DNA from: a virus
Strand: one strand, 5' to 3'
Length of the DNA: 40,074 nt
IMG/VR virus record: IMGVR_UViG_3300029743_000013
Location: 1-40,074 of that record
The position numbers and the translations under genes are program-made. A model generated the notes under the pieces. That model did no database searches and was not told the DNA's origin. It worked only from the letters and a program-made list of their open reading frames with translations. Below are positions 1,548-34,065 of this stretch, piece by piece; position 1 is the first letter of the stretch; the number at the start of each line of letters is the position of its first letter.

Positions 1548-1775
1548 TTACTGCCCGTCGCTGGATTCAAACAGCTCGTCCACCGTCACGCCGTACATCT
1601 TCGCCAACTTCTTGTGGTACTTCCGCAACGGTCGCCAGTCGCCAAGTTCCCAATGCGTTACGCAGGATAAGTCAACATTCAGTTTCTTTGCCACCTGTGC
1701 GCGGGTCAGTCCGGAGCGTTCTCGTAGCTCTCTCAATGTCAATTTTTGTGTCCTCCCTTCATTGTGAGTTATCAT
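1548..1775 (-). CDS. Cro-like XRE-family HTH regulator, first gene of the minus-strand early operon
   Basis: LTLRELRERSGLTRAQVAKKLNVDLSCVTHWELG is a typical XRE HTH. AAGGGAGGA sits 9 nt before an in-frame TTG at 1742, so a 64-aa product from 1742 is at least as likely as ATG 1775. Confidence 0.85.
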   Translation of the reverse strand: MITHNEGRTQKLTLRELRERSGLTRAQVAKKLNVDLSCVTHWELGDWRPLRKYHKKLAKMYGVTVDELFESSDGQ

Positions 1776-1790
1776 TGACTGCGGCGGGGA
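1773..1790. repeat. left copy of an 18-bp perfect inverted repeat
   Basis: cattgactgcggcgggga is the exact reverse complement of 2184-2201. It contains the P1 -35 hexamer and the ATG 1775-1773. Confidence 0.95.
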
Positions 1791-1803
1791 GATTTGCTAT
1801 ACT
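1775..1803 (+). promoter_or_regulatory. sigma-70-type promoter P1 (TTGACT-17-TATACT)
   Basis: TTGACT at 1775-1780, 17-nt spacer, TATACT at 1798-1803. It faces away from the cro-like gene. Predicted TSS is near 1810. Confidence 0.6.
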
Positions 1804-1845
1804 GCCGTTAGCCCTCTTTGGGCAACTTCAAAGGAGGTGGTTTTC

Positions 1846-1914
1846 GTGACCAACCTTTTGATTTTGCCTGTTCCCTTCCTGCCGGGTCGCAACAGCGGTT
1901 GCCAAAGCGCGTAA
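1846..1914 (+). CDS. 22-aa sORF inside the P1 transcript
   Basis: AAGGAGG (1831-1837) sits 8 nt before GTG 1846. Product MTNLLILPVPFLPGRNSGCQSA, stop TAA at 1912-1914. The SD is partly sequestered in hairpin 1829-1860. Confidence 0.3.
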   Translation: MTNLLILPVPFLPGRNSGCQSA

Positions 1915-2147
1915 AACTGGCTAAATGCAGCAACTGATACGGCGGAGCACTCAGTGAAGAGGTTAAAACTCACGGTGATATGCCAGTAATCATATCCCAC
2001 CGTATCGGGTACTCCCGATGGCTTACCAGCGAGAAGGCCATGCGCAGAACCAAAACTGCGAAAGTGGTAAGGCTCCAGAAGAACTTGTAGCACCATTGCA
2101 AGCGGCGAAAGCCTGCACGGGGCAAAGGGTAAACAAATTTGGACATT

Positions 2148-2183
2148 GGCCGGTGGGAATGGTGCTCCCGCCGGTCTTATGTT
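2148..2183 (+). terminator. terminator-like hairpin ending the P1 transcript
   Basis: ggccggtggg (2148-2157) pairs with cccgccggtc (2167-2176): 10 bp including two G-U pairs, with a 9-nt loop, then ttatgttt. The U-tract is interrupted. Confidence 0.4.
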
Positions 2184-2201
2184 TCCCCGCCGCAGTCAAT
2201 G
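2184..2201. repeat. right copy of the 18-bp perfect inverted repeat
   Basis: tccccgccgcagtcaatg is the reverse complement of 1773-1790. The 393 bp between the copies are non-coding. Confidence 0.95.
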
Positions 2202-2235: not shown

Positions 2236-2264
2236 TTGACACTGCCCCGTAAGCGTATTACAAT
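2236..2264 (+). promoter_or_regulatory. sigma-70-type promoter P2 (TTGACA-17-TACAAT) for the CI-like gene
   Basis: TTGACA at 2236-2241, 17-nt spacer, TACAAT at 2259-2264. About 160-nt leader to ATG 2431. Confidence 0.6.
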
Positions 2265-2337: not shown

Positions 2338-2352
2338 AGGTATATGATACCT
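2338..2352. promoter_or_regulatory. candidate operator (6-3-6 inverted repeat)
   Basis: aggtat-atg-atacct. It overlaps the -10 of the minus-strand promoter at 2344-2349. Confidence 0.4.
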
Positions 2353-2372
2353 CACAGATGCGAGGTTTGCAA
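2344..2372 (-). promoter_or_regulatory. candidate early promoter PR (minus strand, TTGCAA-17-TATCAT)
   Basis: On the minus strand, TTGCAA is at 2372-2367, the spacer is 17 nt, and TATCAT is at 2349-2344. It is convergent with P2 and would give a leader of about 560-600 nt before the cro-like gene. Confidence 0.45.
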
Positions 2373-2430: not shown

Positions 2431-2802
2431 ATGTCAATTATGCAAGAGCGTGTCCTTTCTCTTATCCCTCGCAAACCTGACGGGAAATATGTGCATGGCG
2501 CAAAGGCTGATTTTGCAAGGGAACTTGGGTTTAAGAGCGGGGCGATAGTAAGCGATTGGGAATCAGGGAAAAGCGATTCATATAAAAATTATCTTTACCA
2601 AATCTCGGCGCTGCATGGCGTATCCGTTGAATACCTCCGTGGCGAAACGGACGACCCGGGCATAAAAGAAGCCCCCGCCACAGAGGGCGAGGGCTATACA
2701 GATTTGCAGAAGGCCGCTATTCAGTTTGTGTTGTCATTACCGCCGGAAAAGCTGGAGCGGTTTATAAAAATGGGTCGCGCTGCTTTTGAGGAAGACCAAT
2801 GA
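2431..2802 (+). CDS. CI-like XRE-family HTH repressor candidate
   Basis: ATG 2431 (or 2440) lies inside track ORF 2392..2802. HGAKADFARELGFKSGAIVSDWESGKS is an HTH. It is the first gene of the plus-strand lysogeny block, divergent from the cro-like gene. No S24 peptidase-like C-terminus. Confidence 0.8.
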   Translation: MSIMQERVLSLIPRKPDGKYVHGAKADFARELGFKSGAIVSDWESGKSDSYKNYLYQISALHGVSVEYLRGETDDPGIKEAPATEGEGYTDLQKAAIQFVLSLPPEKLERFIKMGRAAFEEDQ

Positions 2803-2895: not shown

Positions 2896-3039
2896 CTAAA
2901 ACACCTCAAGTTCCCCGGTAAACAGGTTTCGCGCCATTCGGTAAAGCTCGGTCATTGCGGTCTCGCGATCCATGCCGTCGCATTCCAGGCCGATTTCATA
3001 CTCGACGCCTTTTTCTTTACTGATCGCCCAAATTTTCAT
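2896..3039 (-). CDS. 47-aa hypothetical protein (second of a coupled micro-ORF pair)
   Basis: MKIWAISKEKGVEYEIGLECDGMDRETAMTELYRMARNLFTGELEVF. ATG 3039 is in an ATGA overlap with the upstream micro-ORF. Confidence 0.45.
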   Translation of the reverse strand: MKIWAISKEKGVEYEIGLECDGMDRETAMTELYRMARNLFTGELEVF

Positions 3040-3158
3040 TTTAGAGCCTCCATGATTTTTTGAAGTTGTTCGTCGGATAACTTTTGTATCAGGTCAAAGG
3101 CTTCTGCCAGCATTTTTTGATACTCTATTGTATCACTTTTCACGTCTTCGCGCAACAT
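3036..3158 (-). CDS. 40-aa hypothetical helical protein (first of a coupled micro-ORF pair)
   Basis: MLREDVKSDTIEYQKMLAEAFDLIQKLSDEQLQKIMEALK. GGAGGG lies 8 nt before ATG 3158, and a TATAAT (minus strand, 3182-3177) lies upstream. Confidence 0.45.
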   Translation of the reverse strand: MLREDVKSDTIEYQKMLAEAFDLIQKLSDEQLQKIMEALK

Positions 3159-3205
3159 TTTGTGTCCCTCCAAATGATTATAGTAACGGGGCTATATGTC
3201 GATTA

Positions 3206-4313: not shown

Positions 4314-5641
4314 TGATAGCGGCATTGATGAGAGTGGCTTTGATAAGAGTGGCTTTGTATATCCGCGTCTCAAGCGAAGAACAGGCGCGGCATGGCCTGT
4401 CCCTGCAAGAGCAGCGGGACGCGCTGATAAGATATGCAAAAGCAAATAAAATGACCGTGGTGGGCATATATGAGGACGCGGGAATATCCGCGAGAAAGCC
4501 GTATAAAAAGCGTCCGGCGCTCCTGCGACTGCTGGGCGATTGCAAAGACGGTAAGATAGACATGATTCTGTTTGTCAAACTTGACCGCTGGTTTCGCAAT
4601 GTCGCGGGGTATTACGATGTACAAACACAGCTCGACCAGTACGGCGTAACATGGCAAGCGACGGAAGAAGATTACGAAACACGGACTGCTTCAGGGCGTT
4701 TAAAGGTCAATATTATGTTGTCAGTCGCGCAAGACGAGGCCGACCGCACAAGCGAACGAATCAAATTTATCAACGATGGAAAACGGGCAAAAGGACAACC
4801 GGCAGGCTCAAAAGCGCCTTTAGGGTATGTCATCACGGACAGGCAATACCAGATTGATAACGGCACGGTAGATGCAGCGCGAGATATGTTCGCCGCGTTC
4901 ATCCGGCTAAAAAGCGTCCTTGCCGTAAAGCGATATATGCTTGACACATGGGGCATTGACCGGGCTTATAGCAAGTATGTAAACTATTTCCGCAACCGTC
5001 TTTACATCGGCGAGGTTTACGGCATCGAAAATGCTTGTCCGGCGTTGGTTAGTAAGCAAGACTTTGACATTGTAAATGATATTATTCGCCAGCGGTCACA
5101 ACGCTGTGCGGGAGTTGACACAGACCGCGTGTATCTGTTTTCCGGGATACTGCATTGTAAAGAATGCGGGAAAACGATGCAATCGGAAACCGTAAAGAAG
5201 ACATATACATATTACCGATGCCGGACTCGGATGCTTGATAACACCTCTTGCCCTCACACAAAAAGGATACGAGAGGATGTGTTGGAAGACTACCTACTAC
5301 ACGAGCTTGCTGGAATCGCAGAGCGGAACAATAGGTACTACAAAAAGGCCGAAAAAAAGCCCACGCAAAGCGCGGACTCGATACGAAAGAAAATGAGCAA
5401 ACTAAAAACGCTATACCTAAACGATTTGATTGAGCTTGACGACTATAAAGCGGAATACTCGATCTTGAAAAGATCCCTCGAAACCGTGGAGGAAACGCCG
5501 AAGACAGACCTCGACGCCTTGAGAAACGGGCTGGGCGAATATGGCACATACTCTCGGGAAGAAAAAAAGGAATTCTGGACGCGCTTCATCAAGCGGATTG
5601 ATGCAGACAACGATGGCGCGTTTTTCGTAACGCCGCGTTAG
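4313..5641 (+). CDS. int: large serine recombinase (phage integrase)
   Basis: Resolvase-type N-terminus ALYIRVSSEEQ, a recombinase domain, zinc ribbon CKECG..YYRCRTR..CPH, and a C-terminal coiled coil. GGAGGGGG sits 6 nt before ATG 4313. Confidence 0.92.
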   Translation: MIAALMRVALIRVALYIRVSSEEQARHGLSLQEQRDALIRYAKANKMTVVGIYEDAGISARKPYKKRPALLRLLGDCKDGKIDMILFVKLDRWFRNVAGYYDVQTQLDQYGVTWQATEEDYETRTASGRLKVNIMLSVAQDEADRTSERIKFINDGKRAKGQPAGSKAPLGYVITDRQYQIDNGTVDAARDMFAAFIRLKSVLAVKRYMLDTWGIDRAYSKYVNYFRNRLYIGEVYGIENACPALVSKQDFDIVNDIIRQRSQRCAGVDTDRVYLFSGILHCKECGKTMQSETVKKTYTYYRCRTRMLDNTSCPHTKRIREDVLEDYLLHELAGIAERNNRYYKKAEKKPTQSADSIRKKMSKLKTLYLNDLIELDDYKAEYSILKRSLETVEETPKTDLDALRNGLGEYGTYSREEKKEFWTRFIKRIDADNDGAFFVTPR

Positions 5642-5680
5642 GCATATTTTACCTTGGCGGACACAAAGGGTAAGTATACC
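5641..5680. other. candidate attP core (imperfect inverted arms)
   Basis: ggcatattttacctt / ggcggacaca / aagggtaagtatacc. The arms match 11 of 15 in inverted orientation. It lies immediately 3' of int. Confidence 0.25.
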
Positions 5681-5681
5681 T

Positions 5682-5717
5682 AAAAAATCCCCCGCCGTAA
5701 ATGACGGGGGATTTTTT
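5682..5717. terminator. bidirectional rho-independent terminator between convergent int and late/accessory genes
   Basis: atcccccg (5687-5694) pairs with cgggggat (5705-5712), with an A-run before and a T-run after. Confidence 0.85.
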
Positions 5718-6030
5718 ACCTATCGAGTTTACGCATGACGCTGTTGTAGACACGCTCGTTAACAACTTTCAAACTGTCCATCAGTTCGTCCATAACCGCC
5801 CATGCCACACTTGGCTCAACAGCTGATACGGCCCGCAGAAAGTCGCTGTCGCCGAAAACTTCAACCGGTGCAGGAGCGGCGGAATACAGCATTGGCGACA
5901 TTTTGTCGTTAACGTCGTTTTGCTGGTTAATCACCGTATACAGCACGGCAAGGCGTTCATAGTTTGTCCAGCTGGACTCTTCGGTTTCTAACCGCGCTAT
6001 CCACCTTTTGATCTCGGTCTCATCAATCAT
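5716..6030 (-). CDS. hypothetical protein (last gene of accessory cluster)
   Basis: ATG 6030 after AAGGGGG gives MIDETEIKRWIARLETEESSWTNYERLAVLY... The longer track ORF to 6099 overlaps the upstream gene and lacks an RBS. Confidence 0.65.
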   Translation of the reverse strand: MIDETEIKRWIARLETEESSWTNYERLAVLYTVINQQNDVNDKMSPMLYSAAPAPVEVFGDSDFLRAVSAVEPSVAWAVMDELMDSLKVVNERVYNSVMRKLDR

Positions 6031-25687: not shown

Positions 25688-26923
25688 TCATCTATCGTCA
25701 TTTCCCAAGCTTCGAACGATTGCCCATTCCCGCTCCGACAACTTCCAAATATCCGTGTTGACCTTTTCCGCAGCAGCCTTTTCCGCAGCAGCCTTTTCCG
25801 CAGCAGCCTTTTCCGCAGCAGCCTTTTCCGATAGCAAAAAGCCGGAGCCGAACAAGCCTTTCCCCGACGCTTTCTGTGAGTCAAGTGCGCGGATAAAATG
25901 TGCATCTCTTTCGCTAATTTCAAGGCTTACGCCGTGAGCTGCCATATAACACAGCATCGTTGCTGTCAAAACCTCGTCTGGATATGAGTATTTCGGCAGT
26001 TCTCTGTGCAACTTTTTGAGATTCTTTTTGTTCTCGTCATCCAGTATTTCTCTTAAATCAGCAGCAGCGACAATCTTATTGCCCCCCATGTTGGTAACAA
26101 ACGACGTATTGACAGACGCGCCGTTTTCATACACAACTCCGCACCCGCACGCCACATAGTTTGCCGAGCCTCGCATAATTCCGAGGAGCGTAAGCGTCGG
26201 AGCAAACAGAAAAAAGTTGATTCTCTTGCTTGTGTACCACTCGCAGATTTCTGAAATAATGGAAAAAGGTGGATTGTCTATCACAACACACCCGGAAGGG
26301 TATTTCTCGCTTTTATAATCTCCGCCCGGATAAAACGGGCGCACAATCGCGGCATTGCCAATTTCGTACTTCTCAGCCGCCCAATCTCTTACTGCGTCGT
26401 AGATGTTATCTGGCGTGTAGCAATCGTCCGTTGTTTTCTTCGCTTCAAACTTTTTCAGAAACTCTTGATATTCTTCGTCATCGTCCGAAAGTTCCCCGCG
26501 CTCCATTCGTTCTCTAAATTCCTGTTCACGTTCTTCGTTAGTAAGTTCCGTTTCGTCGGTATCTCGGAAATCCCAGTCAAAATCAAACGCCGACAAATCC
26601 AGCCCAGGCAGCTCGTCAGCCAGGAGGTCAAAGTCCCAGTCGCTCTCGTTGCTTTTATTATCCACCAGCCGCAGGGCGTTCACCTGCTCCGGTGTCAGAT
26701 CATCCACGCAGACACAGGGCACTTCTTCCATGCCCAGCTTCTTTGCCGCCATAGCGCGGCAGTGGCCAATTACAATAACACCATCTCGGTCAATCACAAT
26801 CGGCTGCACGAACCCGTACTGTTTAATGCTTTCGGCCACATTGTTGATTTGCCGTCTGTCGTGCTTCTTGGCATTTGCAGCATACGGCATAATATCCGCC
26901 AGCCGCTTGTTTTTTACTTCCAT
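25688..26923 (-). CDS. ParB-like nuclease domain fused to N6-adenine DNA methyltransferase
   Basis: ATG 26923 after AAAGGAGG. ParB-N motif VQPIVIDRDGVIVIGHCR, methyltransferase motif IV VVIDNPPF, and a C-terminal (EKAAA)x4. Confidence 0.85.
   Translation of the reverse strand: MEVKNKRLADIMPYAANAKKHDRRQINNVAESIKQYGFVQPIVIDRDGVIVIGHCRAMAAKKLGMEEVPCVCVDDLTPEQVNALRLVDNKSNESDWDFDLLADELPGLDLSAFDFDWDFRDTDETELTNEEREQEFRERMERGELSDDDEEYQEFLKKFEAKKTTDDCYTPDNIYDAVRDWAAEKYEIGNAAIVRPFYPGGDYKSEKYPSGCVVIDNPPFSIISEICEWYTSKRINFFLFAPTLTLLGIMRGSANYVACGCGVVYENGASVNTSFVTNMGGNKIVAAADLREILDDENKKNLKKLHRELPKYSYPDEVLTATMLCYMAAHGVSLEISERDAHFIRALDSQKASGKGLFGSGFLLSEKAAAEKAAAEKAAAEKAAAEKVNTDIWKLSEREWAIVRSLGNDDR
25762..25829. 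repeat. 15-nt tandem repeat x4 (gcagcagccttttcc), coding (EKAAA)n
   Basis: Perfect units at 25770, 25785, 25800 and 25815. Confidence 0.95.
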
Positions 26924-27191
26924 GTGGCCTCCTTTTTCTGACGCACCGGCCTCCCACCACTGGTCTTTGTCATTGGCACGTCTTTCCCAGGCTTTCGCCA
27001 CACCCTAATGCTAATTTTTGCGCGTTTTCCCCGTCAGGGCGGAGCCGCCGCCCCGCCCCACAGGGTAGAAAAGAGGGGAAAAGAAATGAATCGGCACGGG
27101 CAGGTTGCCCCTGCATATCCAGCATACCTATATGTATATCTCCCGCGCACCCCTCAAACGAAAAATTTTTTTATATTTTTCATTCCCCCTC

Positions 27192-32803: not shown

Positions 32804-33877
32804 TCAATACCTCACTCCTATGTAGTCCAGCACCCGCGCATAACCAAGGCCGTCTTTCGTGGGCTTCCACAGCCCGTCCGTGTCGAATGCGCCGCCGCCG
32901 ATGCAGAATTGGTAGTGCTTCGGGTGCGTTTCTTTCATGCGCTGAAATCGGTTGATCCCCTTTTCCAGATGCGAACCGAAACCGCAGAACATACAGCCCG
33001 TTCTTTGGCAGCCAGTGCAATGCAGCTGGCAGTCCACCAGCGTCGCGTCGTAGTCGTTCTCGCCGTCGCTGGCCACGATGTCGCCGTACACGCTGGCGTA
33101 GGGGAGTTGACGCTCCACGATAAATTGCAGCACATCCTGCTCCGTCCAGAAACTCATGGGCTTAGATAAGGGACGCCTTCCATCAAAAGCGTTGCAGCCG
33201 GTTTCGCGCCATTTTTGCATACGCAGAAGACTTTCCTCCGCCATTGTTGCCGTCGTGGGCTTGACATCCGCTCGGTGCTCATAGCTCTTTGCCGGGGACT
33301 TTTTCATAATTCCACAGCACTTGTCTGATATGAGAAATGGAGCCGAAAGCAAATACGCCCACTTTTCACAGTTGTACATACTCTTTTCCCCATCGGCGCG
33401 TAAGACTTCCCCACGCAATAGCTTCATACTTCGGCTATCTGGAGAACGCCGCGCGGTTTCTATCCGGTGCGCTACGTCTTTACCGATGATGCTGTACCCG
33501 TACTTCGTCACCACATGCAGAATGTTCATCTTCGGACGCAGGCGTACAAGATTGACAGTCACGCGGAGAAACTCCCTCCGCAGCCACGCGGCGTACTCAT
33601 TCACGAACTTCTGAATTTCAGGGTATTCCAGCCCGGTATTCACAAACACCAGATTCAGCTCCCACGGCGGCGTCCTGAAACTCGCCAGATACCGCGCCGC
33701 CAGATACGCCAGCACCGTGCTGTCCTTGCCGCCTGAAAACGACACATAGCACTGTCCGCCCCATGCGGTGTACCACTCGTCCAGTTTCTCGTAGGTGGTC
33801 AGTTCCTTTGCCGTCAAATCCAGCGCCATCAGCTTTCGTGCCGCATCTTTTGTCAGCGGCTGATTTGTCGGCATCAT
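32804..33877 (-). CDS. PAPS-reductase-family (PP-loop ATPase) protein with C-terminal Cys cluster
   Basis: YVSFSGGKDSTV is a PP-loop. The C-terminal cluster is CTGCQRTGCMFCGFG. ATG 33877 after GGAGGAGGG. Confidence 0.85.
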   Translation of the reverse strand: MMPTNQPLTKDAARKLMALDLTAKELTTYEKLDEWYTAWGGQCYVSFSGGKDSTVLAYLAARYLASFRTPPWELNLVFVNTGLEYPEIQKFVNEYAAWLRREFLRVTVNLVRLRPKMNILHVVTKYGYSIIGKDVAHRIETARRSPDSRSMKLLRGEVLRADGEKSMYNCEKWAYLLSAPFLISDKCCGIMKKSPAKSYEHRADVKPTTATMAEESLLRMQKWRETGCNAFDGRRPLSKPMSFWTEQDVLQFIVERQLPYASVYGDIVASDGENDYDATLVDCQLHCTGCQRTGCMFCGFGSHLEKGINRFQRMKETHPKHYQFCIGGGAFDTDGLWKPTKDGLGYARVLDYIGVRY

Positions 33878-34065
33878 CACTCGCCCTCCTCCAGACGCAC
33901 CACCTCATAGCATCCGTAGCTTCCGCCGTGCCGGAACGCCTTGCAGATACCCACACGGACATTCTGATATTTCCGACCGGACAACTGCGCCAGCTCCGCC
34001 GTGGTCGTACCCCACCAGCGGGGCAGGCGGTACTTATCGCGGGTGACGATCATGTAGACTGTCAT
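33877..34065 (-). CDS. 62-aa hypothetical protein
   Basis: ATG 34065 after GGGAGGTG. MTVYMIVTRDKYRLPRWWG... Confidence 0.55.
   Translation of the reverse strand: MTVYMIVTRDKYRLPRWWGTTTAELAQLSGRKYQNVRVGICKAFRHGGSYGCYEVVRLEEGE

Follow-up and report, generated by a model that had tools for sequence, protein, structure and literature searches.

The window analyzed here, the whole stretch of 40,074 nucleotides (nt) at positions 1 to 40,074 of IMG/VR record IMGVR_UViG_3300029743_000013, contains an RNA gene located between a small Cro-like gene and a CI-like regulator gene (Table 1). Genes for the terminase, portal, major head, tape-measure, and tail proteins all lie on the minus strand outside this switch region. 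Given these structural genes together with the switch and integrase genes, the window is, judging from its gene content, a temperate siphovirus-like phage whose lytic genes all face leftward, and its habitat is the gut. A cmscan run with Rfam 15 over the whole window returned a single match above threshold, the FuFi-1 motif (RF02986), in the 3′ part of the RNA gene (121 bits against a gathering score of 59.6; E value, 5e-26; model positions 1 to 175 of 175). The 3′ 160 nt of the hairpin-rich transcript are a bona fide FuFi-1 RNA, an already catalogued orphan motif, and the RNA is a further member of this known family rather than of an unrecorded one. An earlier reading made without database searches (the sequence-only reading) had been unable to match the RNA to any family and had proposed this very search; it had offered either an antisense regulator or a new RNA as explanations, and of these the second falls with the RF02986 match and the first is still the leading hypothesis. 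Rfam gave no match for positions 1804 to 2021, the 5′ half of the transcript.

FuFi-1 was described in 2017 by Weinberg et al. with no assigned function and was grouped with three other highly conserved motifs that end in terminators (PMC5737381); it stood out as one of a few widespread RNAs of bacteria with a conservation pointing to a sophisticated function. Among the open-access papers and preprints searched, no other paper naming FuFi-1 was found. To sample relatives, we scanned an exact 16-mer of the invariant core (GGGTAAACAAATTTGG) against viral contigs and against genomes, scanned a degenerate pattern from the conserved 5′ part against viral contigs, and collected relatives of the Cro-like protein. 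The first three scans yielded 142 loci that carry a FuFi-like domain (related loci are designated L plus a number), although the genome scan was swamped by chance matches, with FuFi loci accounting for 9 of 120. The Rfam threshold was passed by 12 of 13 divergent related loci. Related loci came from gut viral contigs and from assemblies of Lachnospiraceae, Eubacterium, Faecousia, Lachnoclostridium, and Marvinbryantia; occurrence in Firmicutes or Fusobacteria is the family criterion, and the window itself carries no host label. Annotated phage records gave two short matches only, both in unannotated faecal phage records. On one viral contig, a skipping-rope RNA (RF02924; 48.9 bits; L123:4906-4989, minus strand), another 2017 orphan motif ending in a terminator, lies about 5 kb from the FuFi-1 RNA.

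The fold of the FuFi-1 domain is strongly conserved. Across 31 non-redundant sequences, 92% of alignment cells in its helices were paired and 43 of 49 pairs showed compensatory changes, while none of 500 shuffles did as well and slid controls were only 35 to 45% paired. Two tertiary pairings join the helices. The pseudoknot PK1, between the P1a loop and the invariant core, was 97% paired, with double changes in 5/5 pairs (e.g., UCAAG:CUUGA, CUAUA:UAUAG, and UCGAA:UUCGG). The kissing loop PK2 was 96.7% paired, and six of its seven pairs had compensatory changes, each in 10 to 16 of the 31 sequences. As PK2 pairs the P2a loop with the loop of the terminator hairpin, the terminator is part of the fold. 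All 11 pairs of the terminator stem covary, and across the loci these terminators are strong, with stems of 10 to 13 bp followed by U tracts.

The plus-strand RNA is the structured one, as had been claimed from the sequence, because G·U pairs exceed A·C pairs (126:18 and 45:5); the minimum free energy z-score was also lower for the plus strand (−2.24) than for the minus strand (−1.53). Collecting homologues and checking covariation, a step that the sequence-only reading had suggested, bore out a conserved structure; of the six hairpins that it named, however, only half survived. The terminator stood, as did the hairpin that holds the Shine-Dalgarno (SD) sequence (here 1830-1859), and the GAAA-capped stem at 2104-2113 is real and corresponds to P2b of FuFi-1. 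The remaining three are contradicted by other pairings: the hairpin at 1889-1902 conflicts with the covarying hairpin 1894-1897 × 1908-1911; that at 2004-2019 conflicts with 1880-1886 × 2014-2020 and 1933-1944 × 1998-2010 and is broken in the 87%-identical L055; and the supposed GAAA hairpin at 2055-2068 is incompatible with P1 and P1a in the Rfam model.

Between the two facing promoters described below, positions 2312 to 2328 (UUUGUGUACCCUUUUCC) are complementary at 15 of 17 positions to the FuFi core (2121-2137). We rejected this site as a target of the invariant core, as the match is kept in this lineage only and is probably due to chance. Conserved complementarity of the core to the flanks was not enriched across 86 distinct loci.

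Upstream of FuFi-1, every lineage carries a 5′ module consisting of a −10 box, a 5′-terminal hairpin, AAAGGAG, a spacing of 7 to 12 nt, and an A/G/U-UG start codon, after which the sequence continues ACC-AAA-CUU-UUG-AnU-UUG-CCU-GyU-CCC. The pattern for this module had 121 matches, and the exact FuFi core followed 97 of them. The 22 distinct remaining matches comprise 12 with a variant FuFi, 2 deletion derivatives, 2 that run off the end of their locus, and 6 that match by chance in unrelated sequence. No complete FuFi locus lacked the module. Because 97 of the 121 module matches precede the exact core and no complete FuFi locus is without the module, the 5′ module and FuFi-1 are, by this co-occurrence, one unit. 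The 5′ 210 nt are a conserved extension outside the Rfam model, and the full transcription unit is twice the length of the catalogued motif.

The 5′-terminal hairpin is kept in all lineages with altered sequences (UGCC/GGCA, GCGC/GCGC, and ACGC/GCGU). A long-range helix in the module, GGCAAAG × CUUUGCC, shows concerted changes in L014, L031, L183, L293, and L002/L226 and competes with the 5′ hairpin for the same GGCA. The SD hairpin recurs in all lineages, with 87% of cells paired and 13 double-change cells compared to 6.6 expected; since the module is so conserved, its support comes mostly from conservation and the covariation is modest. The hairpin contains the start of a mini-open reading frame (mini-ORF), which begins with ATG, GTG, or TTG, never CTG, and has a strong SD sequence in 41/41 distinct versions. 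This pattern suggests that ribosome binding or translation initiation at the mini-ORF is probably real. The sequence-only reading had seen no credible ORF in the transcript. For the four ORFs of at least 60 codons this judgment was right, as none is conserved and stops or frameshifts in relatives break them all; it has to be qualified for the 22-codon ORF at 1846-1914, whose SD sequence and start codon are kept in every lineage.

In most lineages, a middle domain separates the 5′ module from FuFi-1. Across 18 sequences, 91.8% of its cells were paired, 17 of 26 pairs showed compensatory changes, and 0/500 shuffles did as well; in short-form lineages, a single short hairpin takes its place. A local hairpin directly after the 5′ module (CCUU/AAGG) was also considered and is superseded by the covarying closing helix 1880-1886 × 2014-2020.

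Table 1. Features of the RNA cassette and its flanks (window positions; pairings written as arm × arm)
Feature	Position	Strand	Remarks
Cro-like small helix-turn-helix (HTH) gene	1548..1775	-	HTH_31/HTH_3; first gene of leftward operon
Left arm of perfect 18-nt inverted repeat (CATTGACTGCGGCGGGGA)	1773..1790	.	Holds −35 box of RNA promoter; left cassette boundary
RNA promoter, TTGACT-17-TATACT with TG extension	1775..1803	+	Consensus match; predicted start near 1810
5′-terminal hairpin, GCCC-UCUUU-GGGC	1811..1823	+	3′ arm can instead pair with 1864-1869 (UUGCCU)
SD sequence AAAGGAGGUG in hairpin	1830..1859	+	1830-1834 × 1855-1859 and 1838-1841 × 1849-1852; GUG start in loop
Mini-ORF, 22 codons, MTNLLILPVPFLPGRNSGCQSA	1846..1914	+	Start region and ~11 codons conserved
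Middle domain	1869..2035	+	~140 nt in most lineages (window 1880-2020)
Middle-domain pairing UGUU × AGCG	1869-1872 × 2028-2031	+	
Middle-domain closing helix	1880-1886 × 2014-2020	+	
Middle-domain hairpin	1894-1897 × 1908-1911	+	
Middle-domain long stem	1933-1944 × 1998-2010	+	
FuFi-1 domain (RF02986)	2022..2180	+	121 bits; covariation
P1	2022-2028 × 2065-2071	+	
P1a	2043-2047 × 2056-2060	+	
Pseudoknot PK1	2050..2142	+	P1a loop 2050-2054 (CCAAA) × 2138-2142 (UUUGG) in invariant core GGGUAAACAAAUUUGG
P2	2072-2076 × 2119-2123	+	
P2a	2084-2089 × 2097-2102	+	
Kissing loop PK2	2090..2165	+	P2a loop 2090-2096 (GCACCAU) × terminator loop 2159-2165 (AUGGUGC)
P2b, GAAA loop	2104-2106 × 2111-2113	+	
Intrinsic-terminator-like hairpin and U-rich tail (UUAUGUUU)	2148..2183	+	2148-2158 × 2166-2176; RNA 3′ end
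Right arm of 18-nt inverted repeat	2184..2201	.	Right cassette boundary
Promoter-like site TTGACA-17-TACAAT	2236..2264	+	Presumed promoter of CI-like gene; kept in cassette-free L350
Leftward promoter-like site TTGCAA-17-TATCAT	2344..2372	-	Presumed early (lytic) promoter; faces 2236-2264 site
CI-like XRE-family regulator gene	2431..2802	+	phrog_8, phrog_4; same strand as RNA

The predicted transcript is about 375 nt long (roughly 1810 to 2180), terminated, and driven from its own near-consensus promoter. The promoter and the discrete terminated plus-strand RNA were both part of the sequence-only reading, and both are borne out as predictions: TTGACT-17-TATACT lies where it was placed, with a promoter-like site at the equivalent relative place in 50 of 95 distinct related loci under a strict rule, and the terminator-like hairpin (2148-2176) with its U-rich tail is present. 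The inverted-repeat copies noted there also prove real, as a perfect 18-nt repeat brackets the unit, and no further exact copy occurs in the 40-kb window.

What occupies this site varies among close relatives. In 80 viral loci with a Cro-like relative (at least 84% amino acid identity), the slot that separates the cro-like gene from the rightward promoter region had four alleles: the long FuFi RNA; a divergent short FuFi of about 370 nt; an unrelated RNA, about 150 nt long, that has its own promoter and terminator; and an empty slot. Empty slots (0 to 17 nt in eight loci, with otherwise homologous flanks) lack the entire repeat-RNA-repeat unit and include L350, L325, L344, L357, L361, and L324, with two different end points. 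Whatever its cargo, each filled slot lies between the arms of the same inverted repeat of 16 to 20 nt, and the left arm supplies the −35 box of the cargo promoter. The alternative cargo, which we call sRNA-X (small RNA X), occurs in at least 24 relatives (L326, L328, L330, L331, L335, L337, and others) and has no Rfam match; in L326 (reverse complement, about 2725-2895) it has the promoter TTGACT-17-TATGGT and the terminator CCCCGAAG...CTTCGGGG followed by a T run. Another lineage has a different repeat (GCGTTTACCAC) at the equivalent positions. As the slot of close relatives holds a FuFi RNA, a different RNA, or nothing, within the same bounding repeat, the unit at 1773-2201 is, by this comparison, an optional accessory cassette in the lysis-lysogeny switch region.

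The repeat itself could mark the ends of a mobile cassette as its terminal repeat, or it could form a stem in the leftward transcript and so loop out the cargo. For the latter, mismatches confined to a single arm are G·U compatible in three lineages and give A·C in L313. A role as an operator with additional copies near the other promoters was rejected, since only the two arms occur in the window and no related repeats are present in 2180-2440. Inversion of the repeat-flanked segment was likewise rejected: BLAST searches with the flanks and the segment gave one orientation in about 12 contigs that keep both flanks, and the orientation was that of the window in all filled slots of the 80 further loci. 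When the cassette was compared to a miniature inverted-repeat transposable element (MITE), its single site showed presence/absence polymorphism and its boundaries carried terminal repeats, while target-site duplication and dispersed copies were not found (at best a 3-nt TCA overlap at the empty sites).

Several loci carry rearranged versions of the RNA gene. L127 and L137 have the entire RNA promoter (AAAATACTTGCGTTTACTTCGGTTTA...TATACT) duplicated as a direct repeat just past the terminator, where, in other lineages, only the −35 and spacer region recurs, in inverted form. L084/L321 and L122 are internal deletion derivatives; L084 joins the counterpart of window position ~1945 to that of ~2105 at the short repeat GGCGG, and in L122, the 5′ module is fused directly to the terminator. 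In L146 (about 5265-5800, plus strand), the FuFi RNA gene breaks off within the P1a loop, and a tyrosine integrase gene (MATAKKLPSGSWRCQ...) comes immediately after it, an arrangement that may represent a deletion or else an attachment or recombination junction inside the RNA gene.

The region holds a sole good leftward promoter (2372..2344), located beyond the 3′ end of the RNA gene; relatives have TTGACA or TTGACT at the position of its −35 box. An opposite-strand promoter matching at least 10 of 12 consensus positions, situated 20 to 420 nt past the RNA 3′ end and pointing back through the RNA gene, recurs in 76 of the 95 distinct loci, including 12 with a perfect TTGACA-17-TATAAT. In the cassette-free L350, its homologue (TTGACA-17-TATCAT) is the sole promoter-like site facing the cro-like gene, for which reason we consider the leftward site the likely early promoter and place the cassette in its leader. 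The divergent gene starts about 15 to 35 nt from the −35 box of the RNA promoter, so a promoter of its own cannot fit between them. A leftward promoter inside the RNA gene, looked for by eye on the minus strand (TTGCC-N17-TATAnC), was rejected, as no site of at least 10/12 was found in any locus (0/95). No minus-strand terminator was found between 2337 and 1775, i.e., from the leftward promoter to the cro-like gene.

By prediction, the promoter of the RNA and the presumed early promoter converge on each other from a distance of about 530 bp. The RNA would therefore be fully complementary to the early leader of the leftward operon and, on these promoter predictions, is probably antisense to it. 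The antisense arrangement proposed by the sequence-only reading holds on these predictions and stays the leading hypothesis because the leftward promoter lies beyond the RNA 3′ end and is the only one facing the cro-like gene in L350.

We interpret the element as a stable RNA that would be cis-antisense to, and convergent against, the leader of the early lytic operon, acting as a brake on the lysogeny side; we put the probability of this interpretation at roughly 45%. With the early (lytic) promoter beyond the RNA 3′ end, early transcripts would all have to run through the cassette in antisense on their way to the cro-like gene. The strong convergent promoter of the RNA gene may interfere with leftward transcription, and an abundant, compact, 5′-protected RNA could pair with the complementary early leader, leading to its cleavage or attenuation and so damping leaky lytic expression. 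The 5′ hairpin and the ribosome-bound SD sequence and mini-ORF would mainly stabilize the RNA, in the manner of Firmicutes 5′ stabilizers. The presence of an unrelated RNA in the same slot argues that position and orientation matter in their own right. The FuFi-1 fold probably binds a conserved partner in addition, as the fold and its near-invariant core are kept beyond what pairing would need, across lineages with differing flanks.

Several observations weigh against this interpretation. Plain antisense pairing does not explain the near-invariant core, PK1, PK2, or the conserved SD sequence and start codon, and the authors of the 2017 description judged that the properties of FuFi-1 suggest a sophisticated biochemical function (PMC5737381). 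The RNA ends about 68 nt from the start codon of the cro-like gene and about 50 nt from its SD sequence and therefore cannot directly occlude the ribosome-binding site of that gene. All promoters and terminators invoked here are consensus matches. Close relatives also lack the cassette, which shows that the switch can work without it, and it could be a moron with an unrelated trans function.

This last explanation, in which a trans-acting structured RNA binds a protein, a ribosome, RNA polymerase, or a small molecule through its fold (for instance, in superinfection immunity, defense or counterdefense, or host manipulation) and its position in the leader is incidental or secondary, is the best of the alternatives, and we regard it as possible while doubting it. 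It would account for the extreme sequence and tertiary conservation across lineages with differing flanks, fits the sophisticated function envisaged by the 2017 authors (PMC5737381), and agrees with a cassette that is optional and swappable, as morons are, and that has a strong, constitutive-looking promoter and its own terminator. On the other side of the balance stand the very consistent placement between the leftward promoter and the first early gene and the occurrence of an unrelated RNA in the same slot, in the same orientation, and within the same inverted repeat, both of which suggest a role for position. The lack of a known partner or ligand also counts against it, as does the absence of conserved complementarity between the core and the flanks.

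A cis-acting leader or attenuator is an unlikely alternative. Here, read-through signaled by a ligand, a protein, or translation of the mini-ORF would boost the CI-like repressor, by analogy to lambda P_RE, whose transcript is also antisense to the lytic transcript. The downstream gene on the same strand is often a CI-like repressor: among 43 non-redundant downstream ORFs of related loci, 18 encode XRE/CI-type HTH proteins (Pfam HTH_3), 4 contain Peptidase_S24, and 2 contain Peptidase_M78, with integrases and spurious ORFs among the remainder. A leader mini-ORF is present, and the kissing loop wires the terminator loop into the fold, as in expression platforms. However, in most loci a promoter-like site (2236-2264 in the window) separates the terminator from the repressor gene, and the terminators are strong. 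No antiterminator alternative is conserved either, as the 21-nt complementarity seen in the window shrinks to the 7-nt kissing loop in L003 and other lineages, leaving only this loop-loop pairing conserved. FuFi-1 has, moreover, been found only rarely in potential 5′ untranslated regions (PMC5737381).

It is somewhat less likely still that the RNA serves mainly as the messenger for a small peptide (a signal like iCF10/SHP or a toxin), with the 3′ part as a stabilizing or regulatory untranslated region. The perfect SD sequence, with a spacing of 7 to 12 nt and an A/G/U-UG start in 41/41 distinct versions, would suit such a role, as would the recurring peptide core M-T-x-L-L-x-L-P-[AV]-P and the single additional codon that three versions insert between the ATG and the conserved ACC/GCC codon. 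Yet the mini-ORF varies from 12 to 36 codons, its conservation is limited to the first ~11, and its changes are not concentrated at third codon positions. Most seemingly synonymous changes are explained by RNA pairing (CUG with GGCA-A-GG; the extra C of L293 with GGGCGG), and in L293, L031, and L014 the nucleotide motif persists in a different frame. The predicted peptide has no signal-peptide-like or transmembrane character. A type I toxin, expected to be a hydrophobic peptide of roughly 20 to 60 amino acids with a membrane helix, was rejected given the 12 to 36 codons with ~11 conserved, the two prolines of the core, and the frameshifted versions. From these sequence comparisons, a functional peptide seems unlikely.

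Finally, an inverton or MITE-like mobile element, with the 18-nt terminal repeats as recombination sites and the RNA as a passenger, is very improbable: a perfect inverted repeat around a promoter-bearing segment, presence/absence and cargo polymorphism exactly at the site in relatives, and a serine recombinase gene 2 kb away would all suit it, but no inverted copy was found in the ~12 contigs with both flanks or in the filled slots of the 80 further loci, inversion would leave the promoter on (the −35 box is in the repeat and the −10 box inside the segment), the window has two repeat copies only, the empty sites end at differing points and show no clear target duplication, and the recombinase is a large serine integrase (phrog_95).

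Returning to the antisense brake, a broader version of it can be considered, which we hold to be rather doubtful. FuFi-1 might be the 3′ domain of a 300- to 400-nt RNA with a translated leader, forming a dedicated, exchangeable part of the switch whose pseudoknotted fold senses or binds a conserved cellular factor. If so, the early-operon brake would follow the state of the host, with the ribosome, RNA polymerase, a nuclease, or a metabolite as candidate factors; the RNA would be a decision element rather than a passive antisense RNA, and, in many temperate phages and integrative elements of gut Clostridia, it would operate in the switch between lysis and lysogeny (or in that for excision).

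What appears new at the level of the family is the full transcription unit, the tertiary contacts (unless drawn in 2017), the cassette alleles, and the logic of the switch region. The sequence-only reading had overlooked that the mini-ORF is conserved, that there are tertiary pairings, and that the unit is a cassette. FuFi-1 thereby gains a testable role, with a unit of double length, a terminator within the fold, and a fixed position that faces the predicted early promoter and is co-oriented with the repressor gene. This switch-region placement appears across many phages and integrative elements of gut Clostridia, and the natural alleles (this RNA, another RNA, or an empty site between the same flanking genes) offer ready-made comparisons. 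Should the RNA tune lysogeny, the temperate phages that are most abundant in the human gut would prove to have a new level of control; should it not, this instance is an ordinary member of a known orphan family.

Regarding the neighboring genes, the likely true start of the cro-like gene is the TTG at 1742, which is preceded by GGGAGG, and its relatives also begin at TTG. Among the upstream divergent ORFs of related loci, at least 12 of 31 encode small HTH proteins (9 HTH_3 and 3 HTH_17). To the right of the CI-like gene, the plus strand encodes a lipoprotein, a second HTH protein, and the large serine integrase. Between the CI-like and lipoprotein genes, two small overlapping ORFs of 47 and 45 amino acids lie on the minus strand (2896-3173); neither had a match in Pfam or PHROG. 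Farther away, a 27-nt unit (TGGCGGATGCTGCGCC...) is present in four tandem copies at 1-110, within an open frame that extends past the left edge of the window, and the minus strand carries a ParB-like nuclease or methyltransferase fusion and a PAPS-reductase-like gene (25688-27001 and 32804-33880).

Compared to the Rfam model of FuFi-1, the RNA studied here has the same helices and 3′ Rho-independent terminator and matches the full model at twice the gathering score. The model starts at P1, whereas in the related loci the predicted transcription start lies 80 to 240 nt upstream, with a 5′ hairpin, an SD sequence, and the mini-ORF, and the predicted upstream transcript usually adds the covarying middle domain. 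Firmicutes 5′ stabilizers include terminal stem-loops and STAB-SD or ribosome-bound leaders, e.g., those of cryIIIA, ermC, and hbs, and the classical way of blocking RNase J1 is to place, after a 5′ hairpin, a perfect SD sequence that can pair with the 3′ end of 16S rRNA. A STAB-SD does not need a start codon; the RNA here, in contrast, always keeps a start codon and at least 11 codons, and a stabilizing role is suggested by analogy. Small phage RNAs encoded in immunity regions that keep lytic functions in check by pairing with early transcripts include sar of P22, OOP of lambda, C4 of P1/P7, and the CI RNA of P4. These are proteobacterial RNAs of 70 to 100 nt, and C4 and CI RNA are processed from the operon that they control. 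To our knowledge, none has a mini-ORF or a pseudoknotted multidomain fold. They resemble the RNA here by analogy of location and presumed pairing, with no sequence relation.

In coliphage 186, a case of transcriptional interference, the lytic and lysogenic promoters pR and pL face each other (PMC5001618, PMC7708051), as is predicted here both for the 2236-2264 and 2372-2344 sites and for the RNA promoter and the leftward promoter. The convergent distance is 62 bp in 186 compared to about 530 bp here, and 186 has no structured RNA gene between the promoters. A survey of Clostridium clostridioforme prophages also predicted convergent switch-region promoters, in phi5 and phi12, and noted no RNA (PMC11318856). 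A further parallel is the Qs RNA of the Enterococcus plasmid pCF10, which in a convergent operon pair is at once a leader, a small-peptide mRNA, and an antisense regulator acting via RNase III (PMC3181467). The Qs/Anti-Q system (prgQ-prgX) has no sequence or structural relation to the RNA here, and the prgQ peptide is a proven signal, whereas our mini-ORF is a predicted ORF only. The two systems share a mobile element, of Firmicutes for pCF10 and probably here too, and a terminated RNA of a few hundred nucleotides with a strong promoter and a small ORF near its 5′ end, convergent with and complementary to an opposing regulatory operon, here by prediction. They differ in direction: Qs is on the transfer (induced) side, and the RNA described here is co-oriented with the repressor.

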